From: Raphidiopsis brookii D9
GTDB lineage: Bacteria; Cyanobacteriota; Cyanobacteriia; Cyanobacteriales; Nostocaceae
DNA: 32,000 nucleotides
Assembly (NCBI GenBank): GCA_000175855.1
Contig: ACYB01000027.1
Location: 870 to 32,869, forward strand
Direction: 5' to 3'
Each line of letters starts with the position of its first letter. Position 1 is the stretch's first letter. The notes beneath the pieces were generated by a model that searched no databases, had not been told where the DNA came from, and saw only the letters and a program-made list of their open reading frames with translations. Below, one piece after another: positions 10-32,000 of the stretch. The position numbers were made by a program, and so were the translations under genes.

Positions 10-3000
10 TCAACCTCTTAATAAAAATGCTGTTAAGGAAATTTGCATACTGGTAGGTTTAATTCCTTCATCCAAAATTAGGTTTAACCTATCCGTATCT
101 TCGAACAACTGAATAATAAATTTCTCATCATCCAAATTTGATTTGTCCCCATCTGTATATTCCTTCAAAAGTTTTTGTACAGATTTTCCCTCTTTCCAGG
201 TATTCAGTTTTTTTAGTGTACCTTTGACCTTACTACGGTCTAACTTATCTGGGAAACTATCCAGCTTATTCAAACGACGTTGAATTTTGGTAATCCGTTC
301 TGAAGTGATATTAATATTTTCCAGGGTTTCTAGTTCTTTTAGTTCTGCACTACCTTGTTCCTTGAGTTTCACCAGTTCGTCATAAATTGATTCAGCTAAT
401 GATATTAAATATTTTGAAGAAAATACATTGTTAGCTGCTGGGGTTTTAATAGCAGTGGCGATCGCCAAACCATAACCATCTTTTTCTCCTGTGATATTGT
501 TCCAAAATAGGGTTTTTTGCTTATTTTTTATAAGTTCACCATTGGGTCCGAAATATTGCACTGTTAGTGCTACTAATCCGGATGGTTGGTTTGGTTCATT
601 GATTCGACCTAGAGCAATGGGATTTGGTTGGTAATCATCGCCCATTTTTTTTAAAAGTTCACTCAGCTCTTCACTGTGTAATATTTCATTTTGGGTATAA
701 ACATCTCGATTGGTTTCTTGTTTTTTATAAGCATCCTCCTGTAAATTACCTTGTTCCATTTTTCTAGCTTTAATGAGACTTTGGATAAAATCCACATATC
801 CTGGTAAAATTTCGCCATCAAATAATGTATCACCATAAATAGAAGATCCTAATGTACCGGTATCAGAAATAGGGGAAATATTGTAATTATATTCAAGACT
901 TGTCTTATTTTCCTGTTGTTGAGATATTTCTCCTACTAACTTTTTATGTAAATTTTTTAGGCGAGATGCTTGTCTTAATAGTTGACTTTCACTGTTAGCA
1001 TAGTAAACGTAAATATATTCTGCCTTATGTTGTTTCGGTCTATCAATCCTGCCAATTCTTTGCTCTAAAATCATGGGATTCCAAGGTAAATCAATATTAA
1101 TTAAATAATCCGCATCTTGTAAATTTTGACCCACCGATAAGGTTTCTGAACCAATTAATACTTTAATTTCCTCTTCTGCTTGAGGAAGTTCTTCAAGATT
1201 TTTACAGGTAGCATGTGGAGCAAATAATCTAAAGATACTTTGGCGATCGCAAACAACTCGACCTCGATTAGGTTGTAGTACATCAGCAGGATTTACTCTT
1301 TGTGGTTTATCTGAATTGTCGGGATAATATAATTTTGTGGAACCAATTAACATCCCAATACCCTTAGCTGCGATCGCACCATCACGGGTCATGTGATGAT
1401 AATAATCAATTACAGTATCGCTAAAGGTAGAAATTAGTAGTACCTTATGACCAAGTTTCACTAACTCACGAACTTTTTGGGTAACTTGTTGTTTTTTGTG
1501 ATCAACAAAAAACTCATTTTCTAATAGGGTGTGAATTTCATCCAATTGTTGTAAGTCTTTTTTACAATCATCCAGCATGCGATTATAAATCCTTTGGGCA
1601 CTGTCAGGATCATTCTGTAGATTACCTGTGAAAGTATCTATAGAACTTCTTAATTGTTGACGGTTTTGTTCTGGATTTACTTGATTTTCTTCTTCCTCCT
1701 CATCTTCATAATCCTCATCTTCATAATAATCTAAGAACTTGTCTGAGTTATCTTTTTTATCGGAGTTAAAATTATAATGGACTAGTAAAAACTCCTTTAG
1801 TCCCTCCCCATCAAAAGAAACTGATTCTAATCGTTTCTGCATTTGTTTAATCCGGTAACCAAAACTCTCAATAGTTCTACCCAAAGCATACATACTAGAT
1901 TCAGCTCTTTGTAAGAAAAAGCGGCGCTGGTTAGATAACAAACTACGTTGTTCCACATTACTGGTTAAATAACGAATAGGGTCAGCAAAAGGAATATATA
2001 AACTAGTTTCAAATTGGGTGAAAATTTGCTCTAGCGCTAATTCAGTACTCTCTTCAAATTGTACTGGTAACCATTCCGCCACTCGTTTGGCATACAAGTT
2101 TAAATCCGGAGTAGCTTCTCGTAGCATTTGCCTGGTCCGTTGAAGAAACAGTTCCCGATAGGTGCGGCGAAATAGTTCCGTATTGTCAGTAAAGTTTTCC
2201 ACACCAGTTTCGCGATTTTGAAACCAGTGGGTTACTTCTGGGGGGAAGTTTAAATCATTAAAACCTTCTGGACGACTAATAAAGGGTGAAAGGATATTAT
2301 AAATATCTTCTCGGCGATTATTCCAGGGAGTGGCGGTTAAAAGCAAAAAATAACGTTGCTTGCCAGTTTTTCTATCTTGTTCTTGTATCTCTAAACAAGT
2401 TTTGTGAATACGGTTTCTATAATTGCGAATACCTTCGTGGGCCTCATCAATAATTACTAAGTCGGGTCCCCCATAACGACCAAAGTCTGCCAAAAAACCA
2501 CCTTTACGACTCATGAGGTTTTTATTATAAAATTCGTAATCACGGGATTGAAACCCTAATTCTGCTAGTTCTCTTTCCCAGTTAGGATGAAGTTTTTTAG
2601 CAGCTATAATAGCAATTTTAGCTTGTGCATTTTGTTGAAAGTATAATTTAGCTACGGTAGCGGCTAAACGGGTTTTACCTAAGCCTACTGCGTCTGCACA
2701 CACAGCTACACCAAAATTTTTCATCACTCTTAAACAATGTTGAGCGCCTGACTTTTGGTGTTCAAAGAGGGTGCTATTATTTAACAGTTCATCTAATAAA
2801 TCACTGCGTTCTACTTGAAACTGTTGGGGTTTTTGCCGTGCTAACCAATAAAGAAAGTCACTAGGTGTGCCATGATTACCCGCTAAAATCATTTCTACTG
2901 CTGGTTTAAATCCCTCAATTTCTGCAAATTCAGGAATTTCTGGGGAATGAGTAACCACCGGAGGTTTTTTCGGTGCTATTTCATAACTTTGTTCAGTAGT

Positions 3001-4251
3001 TCTTACCTTAAACGCTTTTAAAAGTGTTGGTGGATGATTTGTGTTTATGGTAATTTGACCGGAAATACGCTCCGGTTCTTTACTATTAATGGTAACTTGT
3101 ACCAGGTCATTATCAACAATTTGGATTTCTTCTACGTGGTCTAGATTTTGACCGGTAATTTCAACCTTGGTAGTCTTTCCTGAGGGAACGGTGTGGGGAG
3201 TGATAGAGTCAATAATTGGTGTTTTTAATTGACTGCGACGTTCCTTTTCTGCTAGTACTTCCTGGAGGAATTCTAAACTGATATCAAATGCTATATCTTC
3301 CCGTTCCCATTCCTTATCAAATTGACGAATGTTCTCTAATATGGTTTCTGTATCTAGTTCATCCCAGGAATATAAAAAAGTGATACTTTCAGCATTTCGG
3401 GAATAAGCAGCGCGGGTCAAGTTGTCTGAACCATCGTGTTGAATATGATATCCTAGGGAGTCGCTGAGGATTCCTGTTTTTTTATGATAAATGGCTCTTT
3501 CTGAGTCCATTTTGATTAGTTTAATCACCATAAATCCTAATCTGACTAACTCAGCTAATATTTCTGTATGATCTAGTTCTCTATCTTTTAAATTTCGTAG
3601 AAACTCTTGTAAGGTGCGTTGGATAAACCGAGTGCGATAATTAGGGTCATGAAGTTTTTCCAGTTCTTGAATATCGGACTTTTTAGTAAATCCTTGCCAG
3701 TCCATTAACAAGCGAATTTTTCCTTCTGCTTGAATAATAGCAGCCAATGGTTCTTCATATAATTTCAGAATGCTACTATCAAAATAGGCTGTGGAACGAC
3801 GATAAATTTGACTGCGCTCTAATACTTTACTAAAAAATTTATGGTACTTATCCAAATCATTGGGCAGATTGAAGCGACGCTGACGACCAGAGATTTCTCG
3901 GAAACTACCAGTTAATAAAGCTTTTTCTTTGGTGACATTTTCTAGATCCAAGAATTTTTCAATAATATTCAGCTTGGATGTTCTCAGTAAGCTCGTGCTG
4001 GGTAAGTCATTTTGCTTGATGGGGGTATACGTAAAGACCTTGCCAGCTTTTTGGTCTATTCTTAATAGTTTATAAGTTGTTTGTTTTTTACTAGCACCTA
4101 AGAATCTAACAACTTTATGTAGCAAGTTATCTGCATCACGATGTTTAAAAACCAACCAATACTGATTCTCAAGCCCTTTTATGGGTGTACCTTGGATGAT
4201 GTAGTAAGGACGCTGTTTTCGGATCAGTTCTTGGATAAAGGTGTCCAGCAT
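10..4251 (-). CDS. PLD-family nuclease / IPT-TIG / SNF2-family (SF2) helicase fusion protein, 1413 aa, defence-type
   Basis: Uninterrupted 1413-codon ORF. One HKD motif, YHKKTGILSD...DGSDNLT (3415-3486). Ig-like segment PIIDSITPHTVPSGKTTKVEITGQNL... (about 3040-3219). Helicase motif I GLGKTRLAA (2659-2685), motif II IIDEAHEGIRN (2422-2454), motif III LLLTATPWNN. Helicase-C block LSVGQNLQDADYLINIDLPWNPMILEQRIGRIDRPKQ. Poly-acidic insert DYYEDEDYEDEEEEENQ (1681-1731). The ~130 aa N-terminus and ~320 aa C-terminus are unassigned. Confidence 0.8.
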   Translation of the reverse strand: MLDTFIQELIRKQRPYYIIQGTPIKGLENQYWLVFKHRDADNLLHKVVRFLGASKKQTTYKLLRIDQKAGKVFTYTPIKQNDLPSTSLLRTSKLNIIEKFLDLENVTKEKALLTGSFREISGRQRRFNLPNDLDKYHKFFSKVLERSQIYRRSTAYFDSSILKLYEEPLAAIIQAEGKIRLLMDWQGFTKKSDIQELEKLHDPNYRTRFIQRTLQEFLRNLKDRELDHTEILAELVRLGFMVIKLIKMDSERAIYHKKTGILSDSLGYHIQHDGSDNLTRAAYSRNAESITFLYSWDELDTETILENIRQFDKEWEREDIAFDISLEFLQEVLAEKERRSQLKTPIIDSITPHTVPSGKTTKVEITGQNLDHVEEIQIVDNDLVQVTINSKEPERISGQITINTNHPPTLLKAFKVRTTEQSYEIAPKKPPVVTHSPEIPEFAEIEGFKPAVEMILAGNHGTPSDFLYWLARQKPQQFQVERSDLLDELLNNSTLFEHQKSGAQHCLRVMKNFGVAVCADAVGLGKTRLAATVAKLYFQQNAQAKIAIIAAKKLHPNWERELAELGFQSRDYEFYNKNLMSRKGGFLADFGRYGGPDLVIIDEAHEGIRNYRNRIHKTCLEIQEQDRKTGKQRYFLLLTATPWNNRREDIYNILSPFISRPEGFNDLNFPPEVTHWFQNRETGVENFTDNTELFRRTYRELFLQRTRQMLREATPDLNLYAKRVAEWLPVQFEESTELALEQIFTQFETSLYIPFADPIRYLTSNVEQRSLLSNQRRFFLQRAESSMYALGRTIESFGYRIKQMQKRLESVSFDGEGLKEFLLVHYNFNSDKKDNSDKFLDYYEDEDYEDEEEEENQVNPEQNRQQLRSSIDTFTGNLQNDPDSAQRIYNRMLDDCKKDLQQLDEIHTLLENEFFVDHKKQQVTQKVRELVKLGHKVLLISTFSDTVIDYYHHMTRDGAIAAKGIGMLIGSTKLYYPDNSDKPQRVNPADVLQPNRGRVVCDRQSIFRLFAPHATCKNLEELPQAEEEIKVLIGSETLSVGQNLQDADYLINIDLPWNPMILEQRIGRIDRPKQHKAEYIYVYYANSESQLLRQASRLKNLHKKLVGEISQQQENKTSLEYNYNISPISDTGTLGSSIYGDTLFDGEILPGYVDFIQSLIKARKMEQGNLQEDAYKKQETNRDVYTQNEILHSEELSELLKKMGDDYQPNPIALGRINEPNQPSGLVALTVQYFGPNGELIKNKQKTLFWNNITGEKDGYGLAIATAIKTPAANNVFSSKYLISLAESIYDELVKLKEQGSAELKELETLENINITSERITKIQRRLNKLDSFPDKLDRSKVKGTLKKLNTWKEGKSVQKLLKEYTDGDKSNLDDEKFIIQLFEDTDRLNLILDEGIKPTSMQISLTAFLLRG

Positions 4252-4340
4252 TTGAGGTTAAAAATGTCTAAAAATCACAGGTGCGGTTTGAGGAAATAAT
4301 TATTTTGATTGTAGCAGATGAAAAATAACTAATGCAATAT

Positions 4341-6136
4341 TTACTCAATGGGCCAGTTTGGTATGGTTTGATCAATTGATCGCATGAGTTTAATAGTTTG
4401 CTGTAGTGCTATAACTACGCGCTGATAATGTTGAATATCATCATCAGTTAGGGTGCGTCCCTTACGATCCTTGAGCCATTTTTGACAAACTTGATAACCT
4501 CCTATATAAAAGTTCCAAACTTCTTCGGGTACTCCCAAAAATTTGTCACCTTTTTTGTTGATTAATACTGCATTTTGGGTATATTTAGGATATCCCGCAT
4601 CTACTATTGAATTACCTCCATTTGGGGTAAATTGGGTGATAAGGTTATTTAATTTGGGTGATTTCATGAGGTGCAGGGCTACTAATTGTTCTCCACATTC
4701 TGCAAGTTGACAAAATAGGTTATTGTTTCTGGTGAGGGGAACGCGGGGGAAGTCTATTTTCAGAAATTCAGCGTAGCGTGTGCGGTAGGTGGGGGAGTGG
4801 AAGATGGCATAGATATAGTAGAATATGGTTTCTGGTGTGGGGAGATAACCCAGGTTTATTTCTATTTTTTTGAGGAACTTTTCTGAAAAGTTGGGGCGTT
4901 TTTTTTGTTGCAGTTCTTGCGGTTGATTTGTGTCGGGGTAGAGGTAAAGGGGAAAAACAGTTCCTCCACCTCTACGAAAAATATTTTGATCTATAATTAA
5001 ATTACAAATAAAAATGACATCCCAATAAGTTGATCCTATTGCTGCTCCTTGTCTTCCCAAGACTATGCCATAATTCAGATATAGAAAATGTTGCATAACA
5101 CGATAATTTAATCGTGCCACAAATTCTTGATGGTAAAAGATAAACCTTTGATCAAATGGTCTAAATATTTCTTGCTTAATATAAGTTTCTATTTCTTGAT
5201 CTGTGATACATTCTCTAGCTGTAGAAGCATTCCATTTATCTTTATCAAATAATTGTAATCCAAAGATATCAACTACTTCTTGATCACTTTTATTGCTGTC
5301 TAGAAATTTTACTATGTTATCTTTGATTTCCTTAAATGAATAATTAATAACCAGTTTATCTCTCTTAGTAAGACATCCTAAAGAATATTCTTGCATAATA
5401 TCAGTAATTTTTAAAAACTGCCCATACTCTGCAAATAAATATGTATCTTGAGGAATTAATAAATAAAACTCAGATTTTGGTTAAACCTTAGAAAACTTTT
5501 AAGTAATGTATGTAAATATCCATTTTCCCGTTCTTGCTTGTAAGCGATAGGTATTACCTGCTCAATCTGACGAGCTGCTTGTGCTAATTTTAGGGCCAAC
5601 TCTTTGGCGGTCTTGATTGGTTCATAAAACACCCATTCCACTAAAGGAACAGACATCAGTACTTTAGTAGCAATAAATATTTCGTCTTGTGTAATTCTTT
5701 TTAGTCTAGACAGTAACTGCTCATCATCATAACTAAAAGTTTGAATTTGTTGCTGACGCAATTTACCTTCTCCAGGAAGGATTAAAGAAATCCTACCAGA
5801 TGACCCATTGGGTAAAATTAGATACATGACGGGTTGTTCCTCAGCTACTCGACTGATGTAATGACCGTAAATATCTTTTTGTTGCGCTTCCTCAGTGAAA
5901 AATCTTTTAGCCTCTAATTCACTTAAAGACACCAGTTCTTCATAAAAACCTACTGCAATAGGGCAAGTTTCCGCTGCTTCCTCTTCATCATTACCAGGAC
6001 GTAAATACCAAAACCGTGAACCTTCCCGATCCAGTTCTTTCACCGGATATCCTAACAATTGCCGTAATGCTTCCACACGAATTTTTTCGTCTTGGCTATT
6101 TCTGACAATTTGTAACTGTCCTGATGTGAAGGTCAT
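4341..6136 (-). pseudogene. Remnant of an N6-adenine DNA methyltransferase (Type ISP / Type IIG / DrmMI-PglX-like) with its catalytic core removed by an internal deletion
   Basis: The N-terminal ORF 5456-6136 (226 aa) ends ...ENGYLHTLLKSFLRFNQNLSFIY*. The C-terminal frame is open from 5480 (PKSEFYLLIPQDTYLFAEYGQFLKITDIMQEYSLGCLTKRD...) to 4341. That part carries hallmarks of the Type ISP C-terminal domain: YRPFD-like FRPFDQRFIFY, FPLYLY, HSPTYRTRYAEFLKIDFPRVPLT and YQVCQKWLKDRKGRTL. The two pieces are in different frames and overlap at 5456-5483. Neither piece has an (N/D)PP(Y/F/W) motif or a SAM-binding motif. The combined 577 aa is short for this family, whose members I recall being substantially longer (roughly 1000 aa; not checked here). 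Confidence 0.65.
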
Positions 6137-6316: not shown

Positions 6317-8035
6317 TTAAAATACTTGAGCTAAAACGAATGCAAATGCTGGGAGTTGAAGATGGATTTCTCCTGTTGATAATTTAGTTGCTTCACCAGA
6401 CGTAACAACTAATATCTTTAGTTGAGTGAAATCTCCATAACCATGGGGAGGTTTAAAACAAAAGTCAAATATGTCCTTACCCATATTCATGGCAACCAGA
6501 AAAGAATATTTTTCAGCTGGATCATGAATCAGCACGCACCGAATTCTATGATTTTCGTATAGTAAGGTGCGTCTACCATTTTTAATTAATTTATATTGCC
6601 AACGAGTTTCAGCAAGTTTGTGAATCAGTACAAAAGTAGGGTGGTTTTTATTGTAGGGTTGAAAAGTTTTACGGTTAATTGGACCAAATTTCCAAGTACA
6701 GGCGGGATTATCAAACATATCTTCTCGTACGTAACAGTCGTGACCCATAGAATCTGGTTTTTTTTCATCCTCATGCCATCCTAATGCACCATCAAATTCT
6801 TGCTCTGTTCCTTGATAAATAGAAGGTGTTTGTGGTCCCAATATTAAACAAGCCAGAGCAAAATGTACGCGAATACGTGCTTGGTCTCGATTGTGAGTAC
6901 GATGTAAAAACTCGTGGAAAACCCTGCTGGTGTCGTGGTTGTCTAGAAACATAATATTATTTTGCCAACCAGCATAATAGGAATGTGATGGTTCCAGGAA
7001 CCCACAAAAATAATCTACCAAACTAGATAGCCAATTAGCATCACCCAATGAATGCTTAACTCTATAGTAGGTAGGATAATCAATCAAACCGGAAAATTTG
7101 GCCGAGTTATATTCAATCACCTCTTCGTGGGTGCTCCCCGCATGTTCAGCTATTTGCAAAAATTCTTTTTTTCCTAAAACGCTTGCATATCTTGATATTT
7201 CTTCTACGCAGGGTTCCCAAAAATCTAACCCAACGTGGCGTGCAGAGTCATAGCGAAAACCATCAATATCAGTTTCACCAATCCAGTACTTTAGATGTTG
7301 GATTAGTAATTCACGAACATAAGGGGTTTCAGTGCGCCAGTCCTCTAAAAAGCCAAATAGTCTTTGATTAACCATGTCTGTGTATTCTGGTCCATGAAAT
7401 AGCAATGTATTCCTTGCTTCTATGGGAAAAGGCATAACCGCAGATTCATCACCCTGTATGTATTTGAACTCTCCCTGTGGTGGTCCACCATATTCTGGCC
7501 AGTTAATGCTATCAGCAATGTGATTAACAATTACATCTAGAACAATGGCAATATCCAGTTCATGAGCCTTTTTGACCAGTTGACGTAAGCTGTGAATTGT
7601 ACCTAAACGGGGATCAATCATCAATAAGTGAATAGGATGATATCCATGATAGCCATCTGGAGCGTTGACGTATACGGGACTGAGAATAATTACTCTGATC
7701 CCCAGAGACTTGAGGTAATCCAAATGCTCGGTTACACCCGCAATTGTACCTCCATGACTTGAATGGGGACAAGAAAGGTCATAGTTAACTAAGCTTAAAC
7801 GACTACGAATTGGATGTTTGCTGCGGGCAAATCTATCAATCATGATAGAATAGAATAAACGTGAGTTCCAGTTTTTAGGACTGGATGTCATGGGTACAGA
7901 TGGTTTTGGTCCGTAAACATGGTGATTATTAACCATTCCCAAAAATACGGAGGGAATCTCTTTCATGGAGCGAGGAGCTTCATCGCAAACAAAACAAAAA
8001 ATGGGATATTTCACTGATATGTTCAACGCCATCAA
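6317..8035 (-). CDS. Alpha-amylase family glycoside hydrolase (GH13) catalytic portion
   Basis: GH13 conserved regions are present: DIAIVLDVIVNH (region I), IDGFRYDSARHV (region II, nucleophile Asp), a region III-like segment FLQIAEH, and MFLDNHDTSR (region IV). The listed ORF starts at TTG 8035 / ATG 8032. The true N-terminus is probably further upstream (see the 8048-8329 feature and the related finding). Confidence 0.85.
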   Translation of the reverse strand: MMALNISVKYPIFCFVCDEAPRSMKEIPSVFLGMVNNHHVYGPKPSVPMTSSPKNWNSRLFYSIMIDRFARSKHPIRSRLSLVNYDLSCPHSSHGGTIAGVTEHLDYLKSLGIRVIILSPVYVNAPDGYHGYHPIHLLMIDPRLGTIHSLRQLVKKAHELDIAIVLDVIVNHIADSINWPEYGGPPQGEFKYIQGDESAVMPFPIEARNTLLFHGPEYTDMVNQRLFGFLEDWRTETPYVRELLIQHLKYWIGETDIDGFRYDSARHVGLDFWEPCVEEISRYASVLGKKEFLQIAEHAGSTHEEVIEYNSAKFSGLIDYPTYYRVKHSLGDANWLSSLVDYFCGFLEPSHSYYAGWQNNIMFLDNHDTSRVFHEFLHRTHNRDQARIRVHFALACLILGPQTPSIYQGTEQEFDGALGWHEDEKKPDSMGHDCYVREDMFDNPACTWKFGPINRKTFQPYNKNHPTFVLIHKLAETRWQYKLIKNGRRTLLYENHRIRCVLIHDPAEKYSFLVAMNMGKDIFDFCFKPPHGYGDFTQLKILVVTSGEATKLSTGEIHLQLPAFAFVLAQVF

Positions 8036-8047
8036 TATCTATGTAAC

Positions 8048-8329
8048 CTACTCTATACTGATATCCCCCACCATTACCAATAGGGGAAGAATAACTGAAA
8101 ACATCTTGAAGCCATTTTCAATTATGCCTTCCGTTTGTGTTGTAATGCGATCTATATCACAATACCCCTTTCCATCATTCAACTCATAAACTACCTGTCC
8201 AAAATCCGGATGTTTAGACACATGAACTCCAAAGGTAATAGAGATTTTTTCTTGATTTCTAAACACCCAGTTATAGGGTGCAATATCTGGATCTAAGTGT
8301 ACTTCACAGTATTCATCAAAATAGTGCAT
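8048..8329 (-). CDS. Hypothetical 93-aa ORF, probably the detached N-terminal domain of the downstream GH13 gene
   Basis: It is in the same frame as the 6317-8035 ORF and separated from it only by two TAG codons (8048-8050 and 8039-8041). A third frame stays open across the gap. The last ~18 residues (MFSVILPLLVMVGDISIE) look like out-of-frame read-through. Confidence 0.45.
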   Translation of the reverse strand: MHYFDEYCEVHLDPDIAPYNWVFRNQEKISITFGVHVSKHPDFGQVVYELNDGKGYCDIDRITTQTEGIIENGFKMFSVILPLLVMVGDISIE

Positions 8330-8516
8330 GGTCAGAACTGGATTTACTAACAGTGTTTAGGTATTGCATATTTGCGGGATGATTTAAGATTTTCTCCTAA
8401 TTTGAAAAATTTCTCTTTTGTTCCTCGCGGCGATCGCCTGCTAAAAATTCTTCCGCTCATTATATATCATCCTGTGCAGGTGCAACGCCTGGAAAATCTA
8501 TGGTGACTGAGAATTC

Positions 8517-9866
8517 TCATTGGGTTCTTACGTCGTTCATTTTTAGAACATCATTTAAAATTTGCTCATTGTTATTATCTCGGAAATAAAAATAATTGTA
8601 CAAACAGATGGATATCGATAACATTATCATTCCCTCTATAATCATCAAAAATCCAACACCTCGACCTGGACCTGTGGCAATTAATTTGCCAATACTATTG
8701 GCAAGTATGCCATTAACATGCAGCATGGGCTCTAAAAATTTATCCGTTAGTGGACTGGCACTAAGATTACCAATAGCCACACCTAAGCCCACAGAAGTAT
8801 GTAGAAATGAAAGCACTCGCCCTTGCACATTTGGATCAACGCTATTTTGCCAAATCGCACTGTTGTATCCTAAAACTAGGGGTAGGGTAAAGAAGGTAAT
8901 AAACATACCCAGAGCTATAATTGAAACAGAAGGTTGGAATCCGGAAATTATTAGACCAATACCATTGAATGCGCTAAAAATGAATAGGGTGGAAATAGGC
9001 TTTTTACTTCCGCCCCAAAAGGTCATAAATAAGCTCCCAAGAATCATTCCACAGCCAGCAATCGACATAACAATGCCAAAATTTTGAGGGGAAGAAAAGG
9101 ACAAGATTAGGGGATTAATCAAAACATTAGTCATACCGTCTAAAAAGAAATACAGTGTCATAAACATCAGTAAAATAATCAAAAAAATTTGTGATGAAAT
9201 ATTTTGCCAACCATCCACAATTTCATGAATAATGGTAGAAAAACCTAGCCTGGATTTGATACTTCTTTCTGGTTCAGGGATATGAATGATTAAAAGAGTA
9301 AACAAACCAATAAAATAGGTACATAGATCAATTATCAACAAGCCTTTAATTTGGATAATAGCAATAAGTATGGCCGCTAAAATCGGTGCGCCCAGTTGTC
9401 CTATGGCTGTGCTAAGATGAACCAATCCGTTGGCTCTTACAAGGTCATCTTTTTTCACCATCATTGGTAGGGCCGATCCCTTAGAAATCATTTGAAAAGA
9501 ACCACAAACGGATGTAAAAAATGCTGTTATGTAGGTATGCCAAATTTGTAAGTTATCTGTTGCAATAAGCACTATGAGTACTAGAGTTACGGTAGCTGCG
9601 GCTAGGTCACTAAAAATTATGGTCCATTTACGATTCGACCTATCCACTAATGCACCAACAAAGGGCGTGATTACTACTCCAGGTAGGGTTGTAAAAAACA
9701 CGATTAAACTCAATCCCGCAACTTCGTGGGTGTTTTGATAAACCCAGATACCCAAACCAAAACCTGTCAAACGATTCCCAATTTCTGACAAAGATTGCCC
9801 TAACCAGAAAATAATAAATCTACGTAATTCACCTACTATTAGTACCAGGTTAGTAGCATAGTCCAT
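8517..9866 (-). CDS. MFS-family transporter (efflux-type, ~12 predicted TM segments)
   Basis: 449-aa ORF, hydrophobic throughout, with about twelve hydrophobic stretches. An MFS-like loop motif GALVDRSNRK follows TM2. I did not assign a substrate. Confidence 0.75.
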   Translation of the reverse strand: MDYATNLVLIVGELRRFIIFWLGQSLSEIGNRLTGFGLGIWVYQNTHEVAGLSLIVFFTTLPGVVITPFVGALVDRSNRKWTIIFSDLAAATVTLVLIVLIATDNLQIWHTYITAFFTSVCGSFQMISKGSALPMMVKKDDLVRANGLVHLSTAIGQLGAPILAAILIAIIQIKGLLIIDLCTYFIGLFTLLIIHIPEPERSIKSRLGFSTIIHEIVDGWQNISSQIFLIILLMFMTLYFFLDGMTNVLINPLILSFSSPQNFGIVMSIAGCGMILGSLFMTFWGGSKKPISTLFIFSAFNGIGLIISGFQPSVSIIALGMFITFFTLPLVLGYNSAIWQNSVDPNVQGRVLSFLHTSVGLGVAIGNLSASPLTDKFLEPMLHVNGILANSIGKLIATGPGRGVGFLMIIEGMIMLSISICLYNYFYFRDNNNEQILNDVLKMNDVRTQ

Positions 9867-9961
9867 AGATTTTCCTGTTATCTCCCCTTCTTTATTACAA
9901 TACTATTGCCAATTTTTCTGGGTTCTCCGATCTGGGATGCGCTATCCCGTTTAGGTTAGTA

Positions 9962-10990
9962 TTATTCTCGTGGTAGTGCATTAGCAACTACGACCATATC
10001 AATTAAATGTAATTTTTTTAATGTTTCATTTTGATTTACCTGTTGTTCAAGTTCCAAGATTTCCTCTACACTCTCAATTGGTTTAATTGGTCGATAGAGC
10101 CGAGCTTGAATTTGGGGATATTCAATATATGTGCCACCTTCCATAGTTTTATGTGTATAAAACTGGGAGTGGTAAGCTTCCCATTTCTTGATGGTAAATA
10201 GGGGTGTTGTGGGCAGTTGATAAAGTGCTGATTCCGACTTGAATTCCTCTAAAAATATTGGTTGTAATCTAGGATTAAAGGGATTATCTAGGATAGTTTC
10301 TAACATTTCAAAAGGTATATATCTAACTCCTAATCCTGCACCTAAACCATTCTTACAAATTTTGGCAAATTCCGAGCGCGTAATTAAAACATGTTGATGA
10401 GCAAACTCCTTCTGGGCACGGATATGATAGAGGACGGGAGATTTACAAGCAAATATCACTAAAGAACCATTTGGCTTAAGGAAATTATAAAAAGCCGCAA
10501 TACTTTCTTGGATAACATCTAAACAAATATGCTCAAAAATGTGGGAACAAACGATCAGGTCAAAAGGCCCATATTGGGCAATATCTGGACTTTGCATCAC
10601 TTCATTGACAACATGGACTTTCTCACTATTGAGATGTGATGTATAAGCCAATAAGTTATTGTATTCCTGAGTTAGCCAAAAACCGTCATCTTTTAATTTT
10701 TTCAATAGTTCCTGATCATCATTCAGTAGACACTGAGCGACTAAGGAAGTGTGTAGAAATCTCCGGTGGTCAGGTTCGACTAAAACAATCTTTTTGGCTG
10801 TCCAAAAACGCGGTAGTAATCTGCCCAGTCCACACCCAGCATCCAGAATAACTGCATCAGGGGTAATCAAGTCTTGAATGTTGTTGGACCAAACTTCCTG
10901 ATCTCTGGCTTTCCAGGCTTGATGAGTAATATCTGTAACCCGCTGGTATGGGTCAACTGTTTCATACACTGTAGCAGTAATCTTTTCCAT
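9962..10990 (-). CDS. Class I SAM-dependent methyltransferase with an uncharacterised ~140 aa C-terminal extension
   Basis: Motif I VILDAGCGLGRL, acidic-loop motif II VLVEPD, and post-I/III-like FDLIVCSHIFEHI...LKPNGSLVI. The substrate cannot be inferred. Confidence 0.7.
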   Translation of the reverse strand: MEKITATVYETVDPYQRVTDITHQAWKARDQEVWSNNIQDLITPDAVILDAGCGLGRLLPRFWTAKKIVLVEPDHRRFLHTSLVAQCLLNDDQELLKKLKDDGFWLTQEYNNLLAYTSHLNSEKVHVVNEVMQSPDIAQYGPFDLIVCSHIFEHICLDVIQESIAAFYNFLKPNGSLVIFACKSPVLYHIRAQKEFAHQHVLITRSEFAKICKNGLGAGLGVRYIPFEMLETILDNPFNPRLQPIFLEEFKSESALYQLPTTPLFTIKKWEAYHSQFYTHKTMEGGTYIEYPQIQARLYRPIKPIESVEEILELEQQVNQNETLKKLHLIDMVVVANALPRE

Positions 10991-11088
10991 AATCTATACC
11001 TCAATAAAACTCCAAAAAAACTATTGGTAATAGGTAATTACAACGATTATTGCCATTATAACACTGATATATAACATTGATAAAAGTG

Positions 11089-12483
11089 CTAACTTTCTCC
11101 CCCGACGACCACATCTCGAATCCTTAAACTAGGTCCACCACAACCTACGGGTAACCCATTCTGTCCCCCCTTACCACATCCACCAGATTCATCCCAGTGA
11201 AAATCATCCCCAATTCCTTCTATATCTGCTAAAGTCTGAAAAACATTGCCGGATAGGGTTACATCTTTTACCGGTTCCGCTATTGCTCCATTTCTAATCA
11301 TCCATGCTTCACCTGCACTAAACGTAAACATTTCTCCATTGGTCATTCCTCCTAACCAATTCCGTGCATATACTCCTTCTTTAATATCTGTAAATAAATC
11401 TACCACTGGTGTTTTACCTCTTTCTATCCAAGTGTTGGTCATCCGCACAATAGGGGAAAAATGATAGTCTAAACAACGAGCATTACCCGTGGGTTTTTCT
11501 CCCAATTTACCCGCAGTTTCACGGGAGTGCAAACGTCCTACTAATACCCCATCCTCAATTAATTGGGTGGTTGTGGCGGGCGTTCCCTCATCATCGTACA
11601 AATAACTACCCCGATGACCTGGAGATCCTGCACCATCAAAAATTTGTAGTTCCTCTGGACCAAAACGTCTCCCCAAGGTCATCACTTCCAGTAAATCTGG
11701 ATTCTCATAGGCCATGTCCGCTTCTGAAAGATGACCGAAGGCTTCATGCACAAATAATCCTGTCAGTATGGGGTCAATAACTACAGTGTAGGTGTTACCT
11801 TTGACTGGTGGTAGAGATAAGGCCGTGACTGCTCTTTGGGCAGCTCCTTGTACTAAAGTGTCTAAATTGACTAAGTCATCATAATCTTTACGTGAACCTA
11901 CTGTTTCTCTCCCAGTTTGTACTGTGTCCCCATTCCTGGCTGTGGCAGCAAATCTCATTTCCATATCTACCCATGACTGCTCTATTAGGGTTCCTTCAGA
12001 AGTGGCAATTATTACTTTCTGACTACTATCGTTGTAACGAACGGATGTGGTCGTGATCCGAGAATCAACGCCCTTTAGTATTTCCCGGTAGCGATCGCAT
12101 AATTGTTTTTTCTTTTTTAAAGGAACCGTGGATGGGTCAATACCAGTTATGCCTAGTTTGTAAGTGGATTGAATAACAGGAATAGGAGCGAGAATGGTCT
12201 GTTCATCTCCGACTGTGCGTGCTGCGGAGATAGCTTCTTGAATGCGTTCTTCAATATCGGCAATGTGGTTGAAGCTAGTTAAACCCCAACCACCTTTATG
12301 ACAAGCCCGAACATGGGCACCCATGGAAACGCCTTCGCTAAGAGTTTCTACTTTATCACCTCGCAACAAGATATCGGTTCCCTCTGCTTCTTCCAGTCGA
12401 ATCATTAAGTAGTCAACCTGATTTTTATAGCGAGCAATCAGGTAGTTAAGCAAATCATGGGTGTCCTTGGTTAGTCTAAACAT
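11089..12483 (-). CDS. tldD: TldD-type metalloprotease (TldD/PmbA family)
   Basis: 464 aa. The HExxxH zinc motif FVHEAFGHLSEAD distinguishes TldD from PmbA. The C-terminus is glycine-rich, GGCGKGGQNGLPVGCGGPSLRI. Confidence 0.85.
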   Translation of the reverse strand: MFRLTKDTHDLLNYLIARYKNQVDYLMIRLEEAEGTDILLRGDKVETLSEGVSMGAHVRACHKGGWGLTSFNHIADIEERIQEAISAARTVGDEQTILAPIPVIQSTYKLGITGIDPSTVPLKKKKQLCDRYREILKGVDSRITTTSVRYNDSSQKVIIATSEGTLIEQSWVDMEMRFAATARNGDTVQTGRETVGSRKDYDDLVNLDTLVQGAAQRAVTALSLPPVKGNTYTVVIDPILTGLFVHEAFGHLSEADMAYENPDLLEVMTLGRRFGPEELQIFDGAGSPGHRGSYLYDDEGTPATTTQLIEDGVLVGRLHSRETAGKLGEKPTGNARCLDYHFSPIVRMTNTWIERGKTPVVDLFTDIKEGVYARNWLGGMTNGEMFTFSAGEAWMIRNGAIAEPVKDVTLSGNVFQTLADIEGIGDDFHWDESGGCGKGGQNGLPVGCGGPSLRIRDVVVGGES

Positions 12484-26512: not shown

Positions 26513-28909
26513 CTAGATATCTAAATCTGTTAGATTGAGCTTAGAACCATAAGTTTCAATAAACTCCCTCCTAGGAGCAACCCGATCACCCATTAGTATG
26601 GTGAATATTCTGTCAGCTTCTGCTGCATCCTCTATTTCCACCTGTTTCAGGGTTCTGGTTTCAGGGTTCATAGTAGTAGTCCACAGTTGTTCTGGCATCA
26701 TTTCGCCCAAGCCCTTAAATCGCTGAATTGTGTAATTAGCGTTTCCAGGTAAGGTACTAATGTGTTGTTGTAGTTCTCGATCACTGTAACAGTAATTATA
26801 GTTCTTCCCTCTCTCTACTTTGTACAGTGGTGGACAGGCAATGTAGATAAATCCCTGTTCAATTAGTGATCTTTGGTATCTATAGAAAAATGTCAGCAGC
26901 AAGGTACGAATATGGGCCCCATCCACATCCGCATCTGTCATGATCACCACCCGATGATACCGCAATTGTGAAGCGTCAAACTCTTCACCTTTCACCCCTA
27001 AACCTAAAGCCGTAATTAATGATTGTACCTCATTATTTTTATAAATTTTCGCATCATCGGTTTTTTCTATATTTAAAATTTTACCCCGTAGAGGCAAAAT
27101 TGCCTGAGTCCGGCGATCGCGTCCTTGCTTGGCACTATTATGGACAAAAACTCCTGCTGCTAAAGCAAAGTTATGGGTATGGGGAACTTCTAAATCATAA
27201 ACATCAAATTTCTCTGGTAAACTTTCCACACTTACCACCCGGTGGTTATAGGTGGTGACAGCACTCCGTATTACAGTGGGTATAGACTGGTCATAATAGG
27301 GCATTAAGGAATCCTGTGGAGTGAGCAAACCAGCAGCTTGGTAATTTCCATCCCGCAACATAAATAAATGGTCAGGAGTGCAAATCAAAACCTGGTCATT
27401 ATCCAAAGTTACCCTAACTACCTCAGCGTTGGTTTTGGTCCTGCGGACATGAAGAATTTTTTCTATTCCCACCTCACCATTTTCCCGTATGGTATAACAA
27501 TAGTTTTCTTTACCTGCTGCTTGTTCAGCTATCAAATCTGTAAAAGTAAGATTACGCCCATCCTTTAGAGAAACTAAAGTATTGCCCACAAAACAACCAC
27601 CCGCACTGTCTCCTTCCACAATAAATATTTCCGACTCAGCAGGATCGCGGGAACTGCAGTCAGCTAATTTACCAGGTAAAGGGGAAGACTCCAAAACGGA
27701 TTTTCTGCGAACCAGCTCCCGTGCGTGTCTAGCTGCTTCTGCAGCTTTAAAAGCCTGGATAGCCTTATCCAAAATAGAATCCGCAATACCAGGGTGAAAT
27801 TCTAAATATTCCGTCAGCACTTCTCCCACCAGAGAATCCACAATGCCACGTACTTCCGTATTACCCAACTTAGTTTTGGTTTGTCCCTCAAACTCCGGAT
27901 CGGGAACCTTCACGGAAATAACTGCAGTTAAACCTTCCCTCACATGTTCACCGCTGAGATTGGATTCATTCTCCTTAATTTTATTACGTTTGCGGGCGAT
28001 AGAATTCAAAGTTCTTGTCAGAACAGTCTTCAGACCTTCTAAATGAGTACCACCATCAATAGTGCGAATATTGTTAGCAAAACCTAAAACATTATCAGTA
28101 TAAGCATCTGTACACCATTGTAAAGCCACCTCTACTTGAACATTATTGCGCTCACCTTGGACGTAGATAATTTCCTCATGTAAAGCCTGCTTATCTCGAT
28201 TTATGTAGGACACATACTCCTTAATTCCCCCCTTATATTCATAAGTTTCTACCTTAGGGGTATCGGTTTTGAGGAGTTCCAAACGATGATCGGTAAAACT
28301 AATTTTCACCCCCGCATTGAGATAAGCCAATTCTCGGAGACGACCGGCCAGGGTAATATAATCAAATTCAGTGCCAGTGGTAAAAATTTGGGCATCTGGT
28401 TTAAACTTTACGGATGTGCCAGTACGGGACTGTTGGTCTGGTTCTACTTGCAATTCAGTTGTGGGTGCACCTCGTTCATAACGTTGAGTATGAACCTTAT
28501 GCTCTCGCCACACCGTAATATCCACTACTTCCGATAAAGCATTAACTACGGACACACCCACACCGTGTAAACCCCCAGAAACCTTGTAACCACCGCCTCC
28601 AAATTTACCACCAGCATGGAGTACAGTTAACACAGTTTCCAGAGCGGACTTACCAGTTTTAGGGTGAATGTCAGTGGGAATACCTCGACCATCATCGGTA
28701 ACCGTACAGGAACCATCAGCATTGAGTTCTACATCTACATGGGTACAGTAACCCGCCAAAGCCTCATCAACAGAGTTATCAACTACCTCATAAACTAGAT
28801 GGTGCAGTCCTCGCGGTCCGGTAGAGCCAATATACATACCCGGTCGTTTGCGGACGGCTTCCAGACCTTCCAGAACTTGAATCTGATCGGCACTGTAACT
28901 GCTCGTCAT
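26513..28909 (-). CDS. gyrB: DNA gyrase subunit B, interrupted by a mini-intein
   Basis: GHKL ATPase N-terminus ([19 protein letters not shown]...[29 protein letters not shown]). Toprim EGDSAGG, then a 153-aa insert, then SAKQGRDR...[21 protein letters not shown]-terminal QRFKGLGEM. 798 aa in total, 645 aa without the insert. Confidence 0.96.
27137..27595 (-). mobile_element. GyrB mini-intein (153 aa, no homing endonuclease domain)
   Basis: In-frame insert [10 protein letters not shown]...GVFVHN, followed by Ser +1. Cys1 codon is at 27593-27595 and the terminal Asn codon at 27137-27139. Block A CFVGNTLV, block [10 protein letters not shown] (TxxH), block [18 protein letters not shown], block G VFVHN|S. 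Only about 50 aa separate blocks B and F. Confidence 0.9.
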
Positions 28910-30024: not shown

Positions 30025-31830
30025 TTACTTAATCCCATTTGGACTGAAAAAAGCTAGATTGGATTGATTGACTGTTGGCACTAAAACCCCCCTATCTAAA
30101 TACTTATTCCCCCTTTCACAAGATGTTTCAGGACTGAATAAACAAGCATGACAAGCAGCCCAATGCAAAGAAGTCATACCCTGAAATGGTGTGTGTTCTG
30201 CACATAAAGGATCGGATGTACATAATTCCATTTGCTGTAAAGCTTGGCGAATATGATAACTTAACTTCTCAGGAACGCCCAAACTGACTAATCCGCCCAA
30301 AGTTCCTTCACTGTCTGGTGATGCCGTATAAATTAATATACCCGCCATCGGACCTTCTTCTTCTTCTGGACGTTTAGAGTAAATTCTTTCTTTTAAACTA
30401 GCTGCATTATATCCACATTCTACAGACATTTGTCGCATTAGGGCATGAGCAAAAGAGTGTAACAAAATATATCTTACATCGGAAAATTTGACTTTTGTAG
30501 GATCAAGGCTACGCACTTTACACCACTGTTGATGAGCTTCTACGATTTCATTTTGGTAATCTTGCAATGGTTGACTTTTTTCCCATTGATTTAATTTTGC
30601 TTCATTAAATTCTATGAATATACCTTCTCCTTTACATTCAGTTGCTATTACCCATTTTGGCTGATTACGACTTAGTTTTACTTTACATTCCTGGGGGATT
30701 TCACCAAAATCTAGAAATTCTCCCGGTGATTGAATACGTGTAAACCCAATCAATGCACAAACTTCTCGTAATCTTTCAGCCAAGATAATTTGTGCAAAGT
30801 AGTCCCGATAATCTATGGGCAATTCAACTTTTCTTAGGTGGAAATCGGATGTATTTAATCCAGGGTCACATTGACGAATTACTTGCCATTCTGGAGTTTT
30901 TAAGTCTGTGGCTTTATGACTATCGGGAACATCCAATGTTTGACTTTGTATTTGATTTTTCATTGCCGAGATTATTTCCCAGACTTTTTCTGTACTATAT
31001 TTTGATAATTCTTGTAATAGTTCAGGGAAGCTACCTATGGCTCGTAGTAGTTCTAAATTACTTTTTAAACTTATAAGGTCAGTAGCCTTATTTAAAATAT
31101 GCCAGTTTTGCGAAATTATTTGCGATAGTAATTTATCGTAACTTTGCGGGATAGAAAGGGCTGAAAGTGTAATCGAAAACCAGCTATTTGAAGCACCCAA
31201 TAAAATGGTTTTCATTTGTTGGTCACAGACATCATCAAAAGTTCTCAAATGAGGATGACGACCACGACAGCGAGGCATATTTTGTTTAGCCTTTTCACCA
31301 AAAGCATCCGATAGGGGACGCCGTTGATCACATGTGTCACAAATTACAAAAATATCACTGGGAGAGCCAGATATACCATATTCTTCAAATCTCAATTTAC
31401 CCGAACATTGACTATTTGTGCGGTGAACAAAATAATGCCAAGGAAAATCATCTAAATGTCCCCTTTCACAGGAAACTAGAAATCTGACAGGGAAGACATC
31501 GGGTGTTGTTTTACTTTGGTTGCAATTTGGATGAACATATTTAATTTGATCTGGTCGGCGGCCATTTTCTTTCAATTGAAAAAGTCCTGATGATAGTGAT
31601 CCTAAAAGATGGCATTGGGGACAAACCATCCATCCAGGAAAGGGTGCAACGGGAATACCTATTTTATTATTCTCATCAAATGGAGAATAGGGTGTAGATG
31701 TATTATTTTCCTGTGGAATGGGTGGTAAAAGCAGTTTTTCAACCTGGGAACCCAATTCCTGACGAACAGCAGCTAGTAGTCTAGGTTCATTTAATTCAAT
31801 TGTTGTATTGTCTATGTTCCAGAGTCTCAA
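30025..31830 (-). CDS. Zinc-ribbon + DUF1998 domain protein, DISARM DrmB-like; apparently 5'-truncated
   Basis: 601-codon ORF starting at TTG. Cys/His clusters CPQCH...HPNC, SCERGHLDDFPWHYFVH...CSG, CDTCDQ and PRCRGRHPH. C-terminal DUF1998 signature LLHSFAHALMRQMSVECGYNAASLKERIY...GILIYTASPDSEGTLGGLV...CTSDPLCAEH...AACHACLFSPETSCERGNKYLDR. An in-frame TGA lies 7 codons upstream of the TTG. Confidence 0.75.
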   Translation of the reverse strand: MRLWNIDNTTIELNEPRLLAAVRQELGSQVEKLLLPPIPQENNTSTPYSPFDENNKIGIPVAPFPGWMVCPQCHLLGSLSSGLFQLKENGRRPDQIKYVHPNCNQSKTTPDVFPVRFLVSCERGHLDDFPWHYFVHRTNSQCSGKLRFEEYGISGSPSDIFVICDTCDQRRPLSDAFGEKAKQNMPRCRGRHPHLRTFDDVCDQQMKTILLGASNSWFSITLSALSIPQSYDKLLSQIISQNWHILNKATDLISLKSNLELLRAIGSFPELLQELSKYSTEKVWEIISAMKNQIQSQTLDVPDSHKATDLKTPEWQVIRQCDPGLNTSDFHLRKVELPIDYRDYFAQIILAERLREVCALIGFTRIQSPGEFLDFGEIPQECKVKLSRNQPKWVIATECKGEGIFIEFNEAKLNQWEKSQPLQDYQNEIVEAHQQWCKVRSLDPTKVKFSDVRYILLHSFAHALMRQMSVECGYNAASLKERIYSKRPEEEEGPMAGILIYTASPDSEGTLGGLVSLGVPEKLSYHIRQALQQMELCTSDPLCAEHTPFQGMTSLHWAACHACLFSPETSCERGNKYLDRGVLVPTVNQSNLAFFSPNGIK

Positions 31831-32000
31831 GGAGAAAAAGTAAGTCTCTCATTTTTCTTTGTTCTCGCAATTAAAGCGCGAACTCTTTTCTCTTGATCTT
31901 ACCCCTTTTTTTCCTTAACCGAACAGTATTGCTTAGCAACAATATTAACACCTGGTGCTTTTTGTTATCCCTATCGTATGGGAGAAAGGAGAGGTGCATT

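Follow-up and report, generated by a model that had tools for sequence, protein, structure and literature searches.

We analysed a 32,000-nt stretch of the draft genome of the cyanobacterium Raphidiopsis brookii D9 (contig ACYB01000027.1, positions 870 to 32,869; hereafter the window), in which an intact gene for a large nuclease-helicase protein, here called the effector, lies directly downstream of what remains of an adenine methyltransferase gene. Open reading frame (ORF) calling on the window places the effector gene, both methyltransferase-remnant ORFs, and the alpha-amylase gene upstream of them all on the minus strand (Table 1). The 1413-aa product of the effector gene shows 100% identity to CRD_00577 of R. 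brookii D9. A preliminary description, made from the sequence alone, had read this ORF as a fusion of a phospholipase D (PLD) nuclease domain, a TIG segment, and an SNF2-type helicase carrying an acidic insert, and this architecture is real: its parts were recovered by Pfam, PADLOC, AlphaFold2/Foldseek, and motif mapping.

Table 1 Features of the methyltransferase-effector locus and of other genes in the window (window coordinates; superfamily 2, SF2; target recognition domain, TRD)
Feature	Position	Strand	Basis or remark
Effector gene CRD_00577, 1413 aa	10-4251	-	ORF intact; N-terminal domain, PLD nuclease, IPT/TIG, SNF2-type motor, C-terminal region
Effector aa 1-130, conserved beta-rich N-terminal domain	3862-4251	-	AlphaFold2
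Effector aa 134-324, single-HKD PLD nuclease domain	3280-3852	-	PADLOC PbeA, invariant motif, Foldseek
PLD motif HKKTGILSD	3460-3486	-	Motif mapping
PLD motif GSDN	3421-3432	-	Motif mapping
Effector aa 345-434, IPT/TIG beta-sandwich	2950-3219	-	Pfam (sub-cut-off), AlphaFold2, Foldseek
Effector aa 490-1100, SNF2-type SF2 motor	952-2784	-	Pfam, PDB profile search
Helicase motif I GLGKT, aa 523-527	2671-2685	-	Motif mapping
Helicase motif II DEAH, aa 602-605	2437-2448	-	Motif mapping
Helicase motif III TATPW, aa 639-643	2323-2337	-	Motif mapping
Acidic insert DYYEDEDYEDEEEEEN, aa 841-856	1684-1731	-	Motif mapping
Helicase motif VI QRIGRIDR, aa 1064-1071	1039-1062	-	Motif mapping
Effector aa 1101-1413, conserved C-terminal region without known fold	13-951	-	AlphaFold2, Foldseek
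Spacer between methyltransferase remnant and effector gene, 89 nt	4252-4340	-	Gene tables
351-aa ORF, specificity (TRD) part of former methyltransferase, complete Type_ISP_C	4341-5396	-	Pfam, PADLOC
226-aa ORF, methyltransferase N-terminal stub	5456-6136	-	Identity to intact orthologue
Deletion junction, sole remaining copy of 8-bp repeat AAGTTTTC	5491-5498	-	DNA comparison with CENA303
Tract divergent from sister strains	4419-5498	-	DNA comparison
Alpha-amylase gene upstream of remnant, split 93 + 572 aa	6317-8329	-	Comparison with CENA303
gyrB, 798 aa, with intein	26513-28909	-	Pfam
DrmB homologue, 601-aa ORF	30025-31836	-	PDB 7s9v_B, Pfam

Three Pfam models match the effector above their curated cut-offs (Helicase_C: 39.3 bits vs. 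23.5; SNF2-rel_dom: 30.8 vs. 24.9; ResIII: 23.2 vs. 22.5) and two below them (TIG: 19.4 vs. 20.9; PLDc_2: 17.9 vs. 27). PADLOC models of PbeA, whose N-terminal part we take to be a PLD domain, cover the PLD region (aa 134-324, E = 1.4e-38), and the PLD signature H256-x-K258...D264...G274-S275-x-N277 is invariant among 12 and among 64 homologues. The AlphaFold2 model of aa 1-480 (mean predicted local distance difference test, pLDDT, 78.5) is matched by Foldseek to the PLD nucleases NucT, SauUSI (7clg), PLD3, BfiI, Nuc, and Zucchini, and to the IPT/TIG domains of EBF1/EBF3 and plexin; the TIG region itself is modelled with a pLDDT of 86-96. Both the PLD and the SNF2 assignment of the preliminary description thus hold, the latter on scores above the Pfam cut-off and the former on the PbeA match, the invariant motif, and Foldseek. 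PbeA itself comes from Pbe, an archaeal defence system based on phosphorothioate (PMC6459918). A PDB profile search with the effector matched RapA and the Sulfolobus SNF2 helicase, with the helicase motifs only.

The two ends of the effector are less easily placed. Residues 1-130 are modelled with a pLDDT of about 90 except at aa 44-55, and have no sequence match in Pfam, PADLOC, or PDB. The AlphaFold2 model of the C-terminal region (aa 1097-1413) has a pLDDT of 66 and found no match below E = 0.6 by Foldseek against PDB; Pfam finds no modified-base reader domain there, in a region whose model is of low confidence and without a fold match. The best curated matches of the whole protein in the NCBIfam and PADLOC scans all fall far under the family cut-offs. 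The highest is NCBIfam NF042964, "phospholipase D-like domain-containing anti-phage protein" (122.8 bits, cut-off 1100, E = 1.5e-35); the DpdE model reaches 90 bits (cut-off 500), and the NCBIfam DrmD models NF038317 and NF038318 reach 76.2 and 65.5 bits (cut-offs 610 and 950).

Of the methyltransferase gene, two ORFs separated by 59 nt are left. The 351-aa ORF next to the effector gene carries the Pfam domain Type_ISP_C (E = 6e-86, model positions 3-341 of 342) and aligns to positions 720-1074 of the 1096 in the PADLOC model REase_MTase_IIG; its frame stays open further upstream until a TAA at 5481-5483. The 226-aa ORF belongs to no Pfam, PADLOC, or NCBIfam family, and its first 217 aa share 86% identity with residues 1-217 of an intact methyltransferase of 1024 aa, encoded in a Cylindrospermopsis raciborskii genome (locus L081) 89 nt upstream of a 92%-identical effector. 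After some 215-217 homologous residues the ORF runs on for about ten out-of-frame codons, ending ...FNQNLSFIY. In the intact L081 protein Pfam finds N6_Mtase (aa 334-538), Eco57I (aa 455-626), and Type_ISP_C (aa 751-1012), of which the last alone survives in D9. Residues ~216-689 are deleted there, which takes out all catalytic motifs, motif I and NPPY among them. The preliminary description had recognized a methyltransferase without its catalytic core, which is correct, but had taken the remnant for one gene, whereas it consists of two ORFs, split by a frameshifting deletion and then by the TAA.

In relatives, the intact methyltransferase is about 1025-1130 aa long and has three parts: an N-terminal domain (~330 aa) specific to the family, an N6-adenine methyltransferase of the gamma class (DPACGTG, NPPY), and a C-terminal specificity domain. 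Profile searches match all of it beyond aa ~330 to DrdV (Type IIL, 1e-76) and to the Type ISP enzymes LlaBIII (6e-71) and LlaGI (7e-66); the N-terminal ~330 aa gave nothing in Pfam and no PDB homologue. In homologue searches, the matches listed for the two ORFs were all short proteins (at most 396 aa for the 226-aa ORF and 612 aa for the 351-aa ORF); these searches revealed many truncated methyltransferase copies and stand-alone specificity proteins. By exact look-up, both ORFs are absent from the protein collection, and the D9 effector has no entry in the gene-position index.

How D9 came to lose the catalytic core is visible from its sister strains (C. raciborskii CENA302, CENA303, and others), whose effectors cluster with that of D9 at 90% identity. 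At their loci the methyltransferase is intact (1073-1078 aa) and the spacer is also 89 nt long (seen in L081, L085-L088, and L091), and CENA303 (L091) shares the upstream amylase gene of D9. Against CENA303, positions 8359-5491 of the window align at 98.8% and positions 4954-1 at 99.5%. The repeat AAGTTTTC occurs twice in CENA303 (7322-7329 and 8745-8752); the 1423 bp between the two 8-bp copies are missing from D9, where one copy is left. Since 1423 is not a multiple of three, the N-terminal stub hits a stop after about ten codons. Past the junction, the TAA stands in the frame of the specificity domain.

A deletion read from a single draft could be an assembly artefact, with the methyltransferase really intact in D9. 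The adjoining amylase gene differs from that of CENA303, at 8087 and 7994, by two compensating 1-nt homopolymer changes (C5 to C4 and T3 to T4); such changes are typical of pyrosequencing and may be errors of the D9 draft rather than real lesions. The exact junction, moreover, had 0 matches in the metagenomes of the Joint Genome Institute. A clean loss of 1423 bp at an 8-bp microhomology is, however, what a real deletion leaves behind, unlike homopolymer errors or repeat collapse; the junction region also holds a different specificity allele as well as the TAA, and independent methyltransferase lesions occur in relatives (L089, L025, L046, and L092). An artefact is therefore very unlikely. At L089 (GCA_026929755.1, 6457-9911), the sister methyltransferase is broken within its specificity domain, where ~100-230 nt have been inserted or duplicated, into parts of 926 and 191 aa.

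The effector gene dates the event. It differs from that of CENA303 at 7 of 4242 nt (4 synonymous and 3 nonsynonymous differences), and in comparison with five sister sequences not one codon change is private to D9. The ratio of nonsynonymous to synonymous substitution rates against the sister strains is based on 7-12 differences only, none of them D9-private. Because the effector has no private change, its intact 4.2-kb ORF is uninformative on selection, and the gene is intact because too little time has passed since the methyltransferase was deleted. Judged from these sequences, the deletion is very young, and the D9 copy is an ordinary fresh pseudogene. Among the explanations offered in the preliminary description, that of a very recent loss of the methyltransferase is directly demonstrated by these data. 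Its puzzle, that 4.2 kb had kept every recognizable motif beside a dead partner, dissolves, there having been no time for decay, and its suggestion that the effector was put to another use is unsupported.

The deletion borders on a tract in which D9 departs from its sister strains. Divergence from CENA303 is 0.8% at 6136-5499 (99.2% nucleotide identity) and 0.16% at 4418-1, outside the tract, but 6.7% at 5498-5394 and 3.7% at 4954-4419, and positions 5394-4954 have no DNA-level alignment to any sister strain. The left border of the tract was lost with the deletion. Sister methyltransferases are 98-100% identical elsewhere and only 7-46% identical in the specificity segment (aa ~696-840), of which near-identical C. 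raciborskii/R. brookii strains (L085, L086, L088, L089, L091, and D9; effectors >99% identical) carry at least four alleles of ~150 aa. This indicates frequent cassette exchange of the specificity segment, and the divergent tract of D9 points to an imported allele. The D9 allele recurs in the metagenome fragment P0331 (251 aa, 93% identity over aa 101-350), which shows it to be real; besides P0331, the best full-length relatives, from Microcystis and Pseudanabaena, are ~50% identical in the variable part. The deletion and the allele swap may stem from a single homology-facilitated illegitimate recombination, given that the deletion junction is also where the divergent tract starts.

We surveyed relatives of the effector in a scan of one genome per species. 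Nearly all of the 80 loci obtained were cyanobacterial, and the informative set was made up of 37 species in which the effector is intact and its upstream flank covers at least 4.5 kb. The methyltransferase lies upstream of the effector on the same strand in 35 of these 37, as a single ORF at 24 loci and as two ORFs at 11, the latter consisting of a catalytic protein of ~660 aa and a specificity protein of ~410-470 aa. At one further locus it is N-terminally truncated (L025), and at another absent (L013). The neighbourhood comparison called for by the preliminary description thus finds effector orthologues beside an intact methyltransferase in 35 of 37 species, and the split arrangement that it had proposed, with nuclease and motor on one protein and methyltransferase and specificity domain on the other, is real and conserved to the same extent. 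As judged by this conservation, the methyltransferase-effector pair is a real system. The distance between its two genes ranges from an overlap up to 3.4 kb, long gaps being filled by toxin-antitoxin-like genes, and ORF clustering of the 80 loci found no third conserved gene. The effector is found on seven cyanobacterial plasmids; RefSeq annotates the pair on pSYLA of Synechocystis PCC 6714 (D082_RS16085 and D082_RS16100) as "type ISP restriction/modification enzyme" and "helicase-related protein". Pseudogenization is frequent among copies and affects either gene.

Directly upstream of the methyltransferase, 14 loci encode an XRE/HTH_3 protein of ~80-82 aa (e.g., L003 4400-4648 and L093 7672-7905), resembling the controller proteins of restriction-modification systems; the XRE gene is absent from D9 and its sister strains. 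The hypervariable specificity segment, frequent pseudogenization, plasmid copies, and toxin-antitoxin and XRE neighbours are hallmarks of defence. Toxin-antitoxin-like pairs lie between methyltransferase and effector at L008 (7356-7799), L012 (6618-7378), L100 (6373-6988), and others, the inserted types being PIN/VapC with antitoxin, nucleotidyltransferase with DUF86/HEPN, and DUF433-like genes. The species with a two-ORF methyltransferase are those of L007, L023, L026, L028, L032, L033, L038, L044, L052, L057, and L070; the two ORFs part where the domains meet, and toxin-antitoxin genes sometimes separate them. The database contains many specificity proteins that stand alone, at ~410-450 aa (P0334 and P0348; for example O53_3188 of Microcystis aeruginosa TAIHU98). 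The two-ORF arrangement suggests that the system can also function with methyltransferase and specificity on separate subunits.

The full effector architecture is confined to a handful of representatives in a library of 1.84 billion representative proteins. A broader set of PLD-SNF2 proteins, with a motor 27-37% identical, occurs in other phyla, and analogous two-gene operons, made up of an Eco57I/MmeI-type methyltransferase and a PLD-SNF2 protein, lie on Lactobacillales plasmids and in a metagenome contig. The two such units that we delimited, L101 (1817-8742, L. plantarum plasmid NZ_CP023492.1) and L098 (3307-12152), encode methyltransferases of 1162 or 1513 aa and PLD-SNF2 proteins of 1146 or 1383 aa; PADLOC has no specific model for either unit.

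From the deletion, the young age of the lesion, and the survey, we consider it likely that a two-gene defence operon, which is ATP-dependent, resembles restriction-modification systems, and is conserved in cyanobacteria, has very recently been inactivated in D9. Several points weigh against this. The D9 genome is a draft assembly and probably contains homopolymer errors. L013 (Mastigocoleus testarum BC008, 8001-12236), which has an intact effector and neither a methyltransferase nor a remnant of one within 8 kb on either side, could reflect a methyltransferase-independent role of the effector, and is the only methyltransferase-less case among the 37 informative species. The surviving 351-aa ORF of D9 is a complete Pfam domain with its own ATG, like the natural specificity proteins of ~410-450 aa, and may retain residual activity. 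Finally, that the pair recognizes a site, that it methylates and cleaves DNA, and that its two proteins bind each other is all inferred from homology and analogy.

These points bear on a different account of D9, in which the effector was kept because it still works, either guided by the 351-aa specificity ORF or independently of the methyltransferase, in repair or remodelling. The completeness of the Type_ISP_C domain and its ATG would fit a guiding role, as would the fact that stand-alone specificity proteins are common and conserved (11 of 37 species and many database clusters), and L013 would fit independence. Yet the effector has no D9-private change, which leaves nothing for selection to explain; the 351-aa ORF lacks ~62 N-terminal residues of the natural stand-alone proteins; restriction that is targeted but unaccompanied by modification would attack the host genome; and 35 of 37 species have the methyltransferase beside the effector. 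We hold this account to be very unlikely. Its more general form, that in D9, L013, and L025 alike the PLD-TIG-SNF2 protein is still used under the guidance of a stand-alone specificity protein such as the 351-aa ORF, is distinctly unlikely; if true, it would mean sequence-targeted DNA translocation or cleavage uncoupled from methylation.

Returning to the pair as a restriction-modification-like operon, we compared it with known systems. The two-gene arrangement has no named match in PADLOC 2.0, NCBIfam, or the literature searched, in agreement with the preliminary description, which could match it to no characterized system. The family is a variant of known ATP-dependent restriction-modification-like systems rather than a new category, and appears uncharacterized. 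With neither DUF499, DUF3780, nor DrmA/B accompanying the pair, and with two polypeptides and no Mrr nuclease, it is not MANTIS, DISARM, or Type ISP.

The BREX-related type 2 systems (PMC12839542), with MANTIS as their characterized member (bioRxiv 10.64898/2026.09.23.753747), consist of a DUF499 AAA+ ATPase, DUF3780, an N6-methyltransferase, and an HKD-SF2 effector. The MANTIS effector needs the methyltransferase complex, and knockout of the methyltransferase is non-toxic and abolishes restriction (bioRxiv 10.64898/2026.09.23.753747). Like MANTIS/Gao_RL/BR type 2 (MtsA-D), the cyanobacterial pair joins an N6-adenine methyltransferase to an effector with an N-terminal HKD/PLD domain followed by an SF2 motor, the same domain order as in MtsD, and in both the predicted place of the effector is after recognition, which the methyltransferase directs. 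NF042964, which may correspond to MtsD, scores the effector far below its cut-off (122.8 bits vs. 1100). Unlike MANTIS, the cyanobacterial methyltransferase has a Type ISP/IIL-type specificity domain, and the effector is ~500 aa longer, with an extra N-terminal domain, TIG, an acidic insert, and a C-terminal region. Membership in MANTIS/BR type 2 was considered and rejected: neither DUF499 (MtsA) nor DUF3780 (MtsB) occurs in the neighbourhoods examined, which comprised the Pfam gene tables of L081, L085-L091, and L093, the RefSeq names at L100, and the ORF clustering of the 80 loci.

Type ISP enzymes (LlaGI, LlaBIII) have a homologous methyltransferase-specificity module and likewise combine nuclease, SF2 motor, gamma-class methyltransferase, and specificity. 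Intact orthologues of the D9 methyltransferase show the Type ISP succession of a gamma-class methyltransferase and a C-terminal specificity domain (PF18135), matching LlaBIII/LlaGI over aa ~330-1025. Type ISP is, however, defined by a single polypeptide and an Mrr nuclease (PMC3874165). The pair consists of two polypeptides in all 35 intact loci; its nuclease is of the HKD/PLD type and sits on the partner protein, with no N-terminal Mrr-like PD-(D/E)xK domain; its SNF2-type motor is on that other protein too, and the methyltransferase has its own N-terminal domain of ~330 aa, which lacks a known homologue.

Type III systems (EcoP15I, mod then res) show the same two-gene order, modification and specificity first, then nuclease and SF2 motor, and in them, too, losing the modification subunit abolishes restriction. 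Mod differs in being a beta-class enzyme with an internal specificity domain, where that of the pair is C-terminal and of the ISP/IIL type, and Res has an N-terminal SF2 helicase and a C-terminal PD-(D/E)xK nuclease, where that of the pair is an N-terminal PLD domain; there is no sequence relationship except the marginal ResIII match (23.2 bits vs. 22.5). An N-terminal PLD nuclease fused to an SF2 helicase-like ATPase is also found in SauUSI (ATP-dependent Type IV) and in the N-proteins of CglI/NgoAVII. SauUSI is an autonomous enzyme directed at modified DNA and bears a C-terminal reader domain of its own, whereas the effector of cyanobacteria is nearly always methyltransferase-linked and has a C-terminal region without a known fold. 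This tight linkage argues against autonomy of the effector.

Class 1 DISARM (DrmA, DrmB, DrmC, DrmD, and DrmMI), with which the preliminary description had compared the locus, likewise unites an SNF2 helicase, a PLD nuclease, and a large adenine methyltransferase, and the pair might be its DrmD/DrmC/DrmMI part with the DrmA/DrmB core encoded elsewhere. A DrmB homologue indeed lies in the window, 26 kb from the pair (PDB 7s9v_B, E = 2e-162), and the effector has weak matches to DrmD models in PADLOC and NCBIfam. In the pair, though, PLD and SNF2 are fused, and the DrmD scores are far below cut-off (76 bits vs. 610 in NCBIfam). No DrmA or DrmB is encoded near any of the 101 related loci, tblastn with the DrmB homologue of the window finding nothing in the 101 loci around effector homologues, and conversely none of 80 DrmB loci has a close relative of the effector or the methyltransferase. 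The D9 drmB is itself 5'-truncated, with no drmA or drmC in the window and with housekeeping genes between it and the pair. The comparison with DISARM accordingly fails, and a dispersed DISARM system is extremely improbable; this DrmB candidate, a truncated orphan not linked to the pair elsewhere, was rejected.

For the restriction-modification-like operon, the homology of the methyltransferase module to ISP/IIL enzymes and the analogy of the effector to SauUSI and MtsD suggest a mechanism. The methyltransferase-specificity protein would read a short asymmetric site and methylate one adenine; at an unmethylated site it would recruit or license the effector, which would translocate on ATP with its SNF2 motor and cut through a PLD active site formed by dimerization of two protomers. 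The effector might dock on the N-terminal ~330-aa domain of the methyltransferase, a purely conjectural assignment. An effector without specificity of its own would make loss of the methyltransferase harmless, leaving a restriction-minus, modification-minus cell. Loss of the methyltransferase first has been tolerated in at least three lineages (D9, L013, and L025). That the effector is harmless without the methyltransferase is plausible, since it is intact without a methyltransferase in L013 and beside a truncated one in L025, and since the MANTIS methyltransferase knockout is non-toxic. The proposal of the preliminary description that the effector needs the methyltransferase/TRD subunit and is harmless alone fits these cases, as a plausible rather than a demonstrated explanation.

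Elsewhere in the window, the 601-aa DrmB homologue also matches Pfam MZB/DUF1998. It lacks ~37 N-terminal residues, and all frames contain stops in the 170 nt upstream; in metagenomic relatives, the start of drmB lies within an overlap with drmA, and a PLD gene comes next. The orphan drmB looks like a second decayed defence system in the window; this gene and the amylase gene, which is possibly split, may be further instances of the gene decay that struck the D9 pair. The intein of gyrB (Pfam Intein_splicing, aa 447-591) lies between the GyrB and Toprim domains.

If these inferences hold, the family would be a minimal system made of a Type ISP/IIL-type methyltransferase-specificity protein and a SauUSI/MtsD-type PLD-helicase effector. 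Since MANTIS depends on an AAA+ loader and the pair has none, the pair could reveal how unmethylated sites pass from a methyltransferase to a motor-nuclease on another protein. The methyltransferase matches PADLOC Type IIG models, and RefSeq gives the name "type ISP restriction/modification enzyme" to the methyltransferase alone, so that defence inventories of bloom-forming cyanobacteria (Microcystis, Cylindrospermopsis/Raphidiopsis, Nostoc, and Pseudanabaena) may misdescribe the pair. On the same premise, its strain-level specificity alleles would be relevant to phage-host dynamics in blooms.

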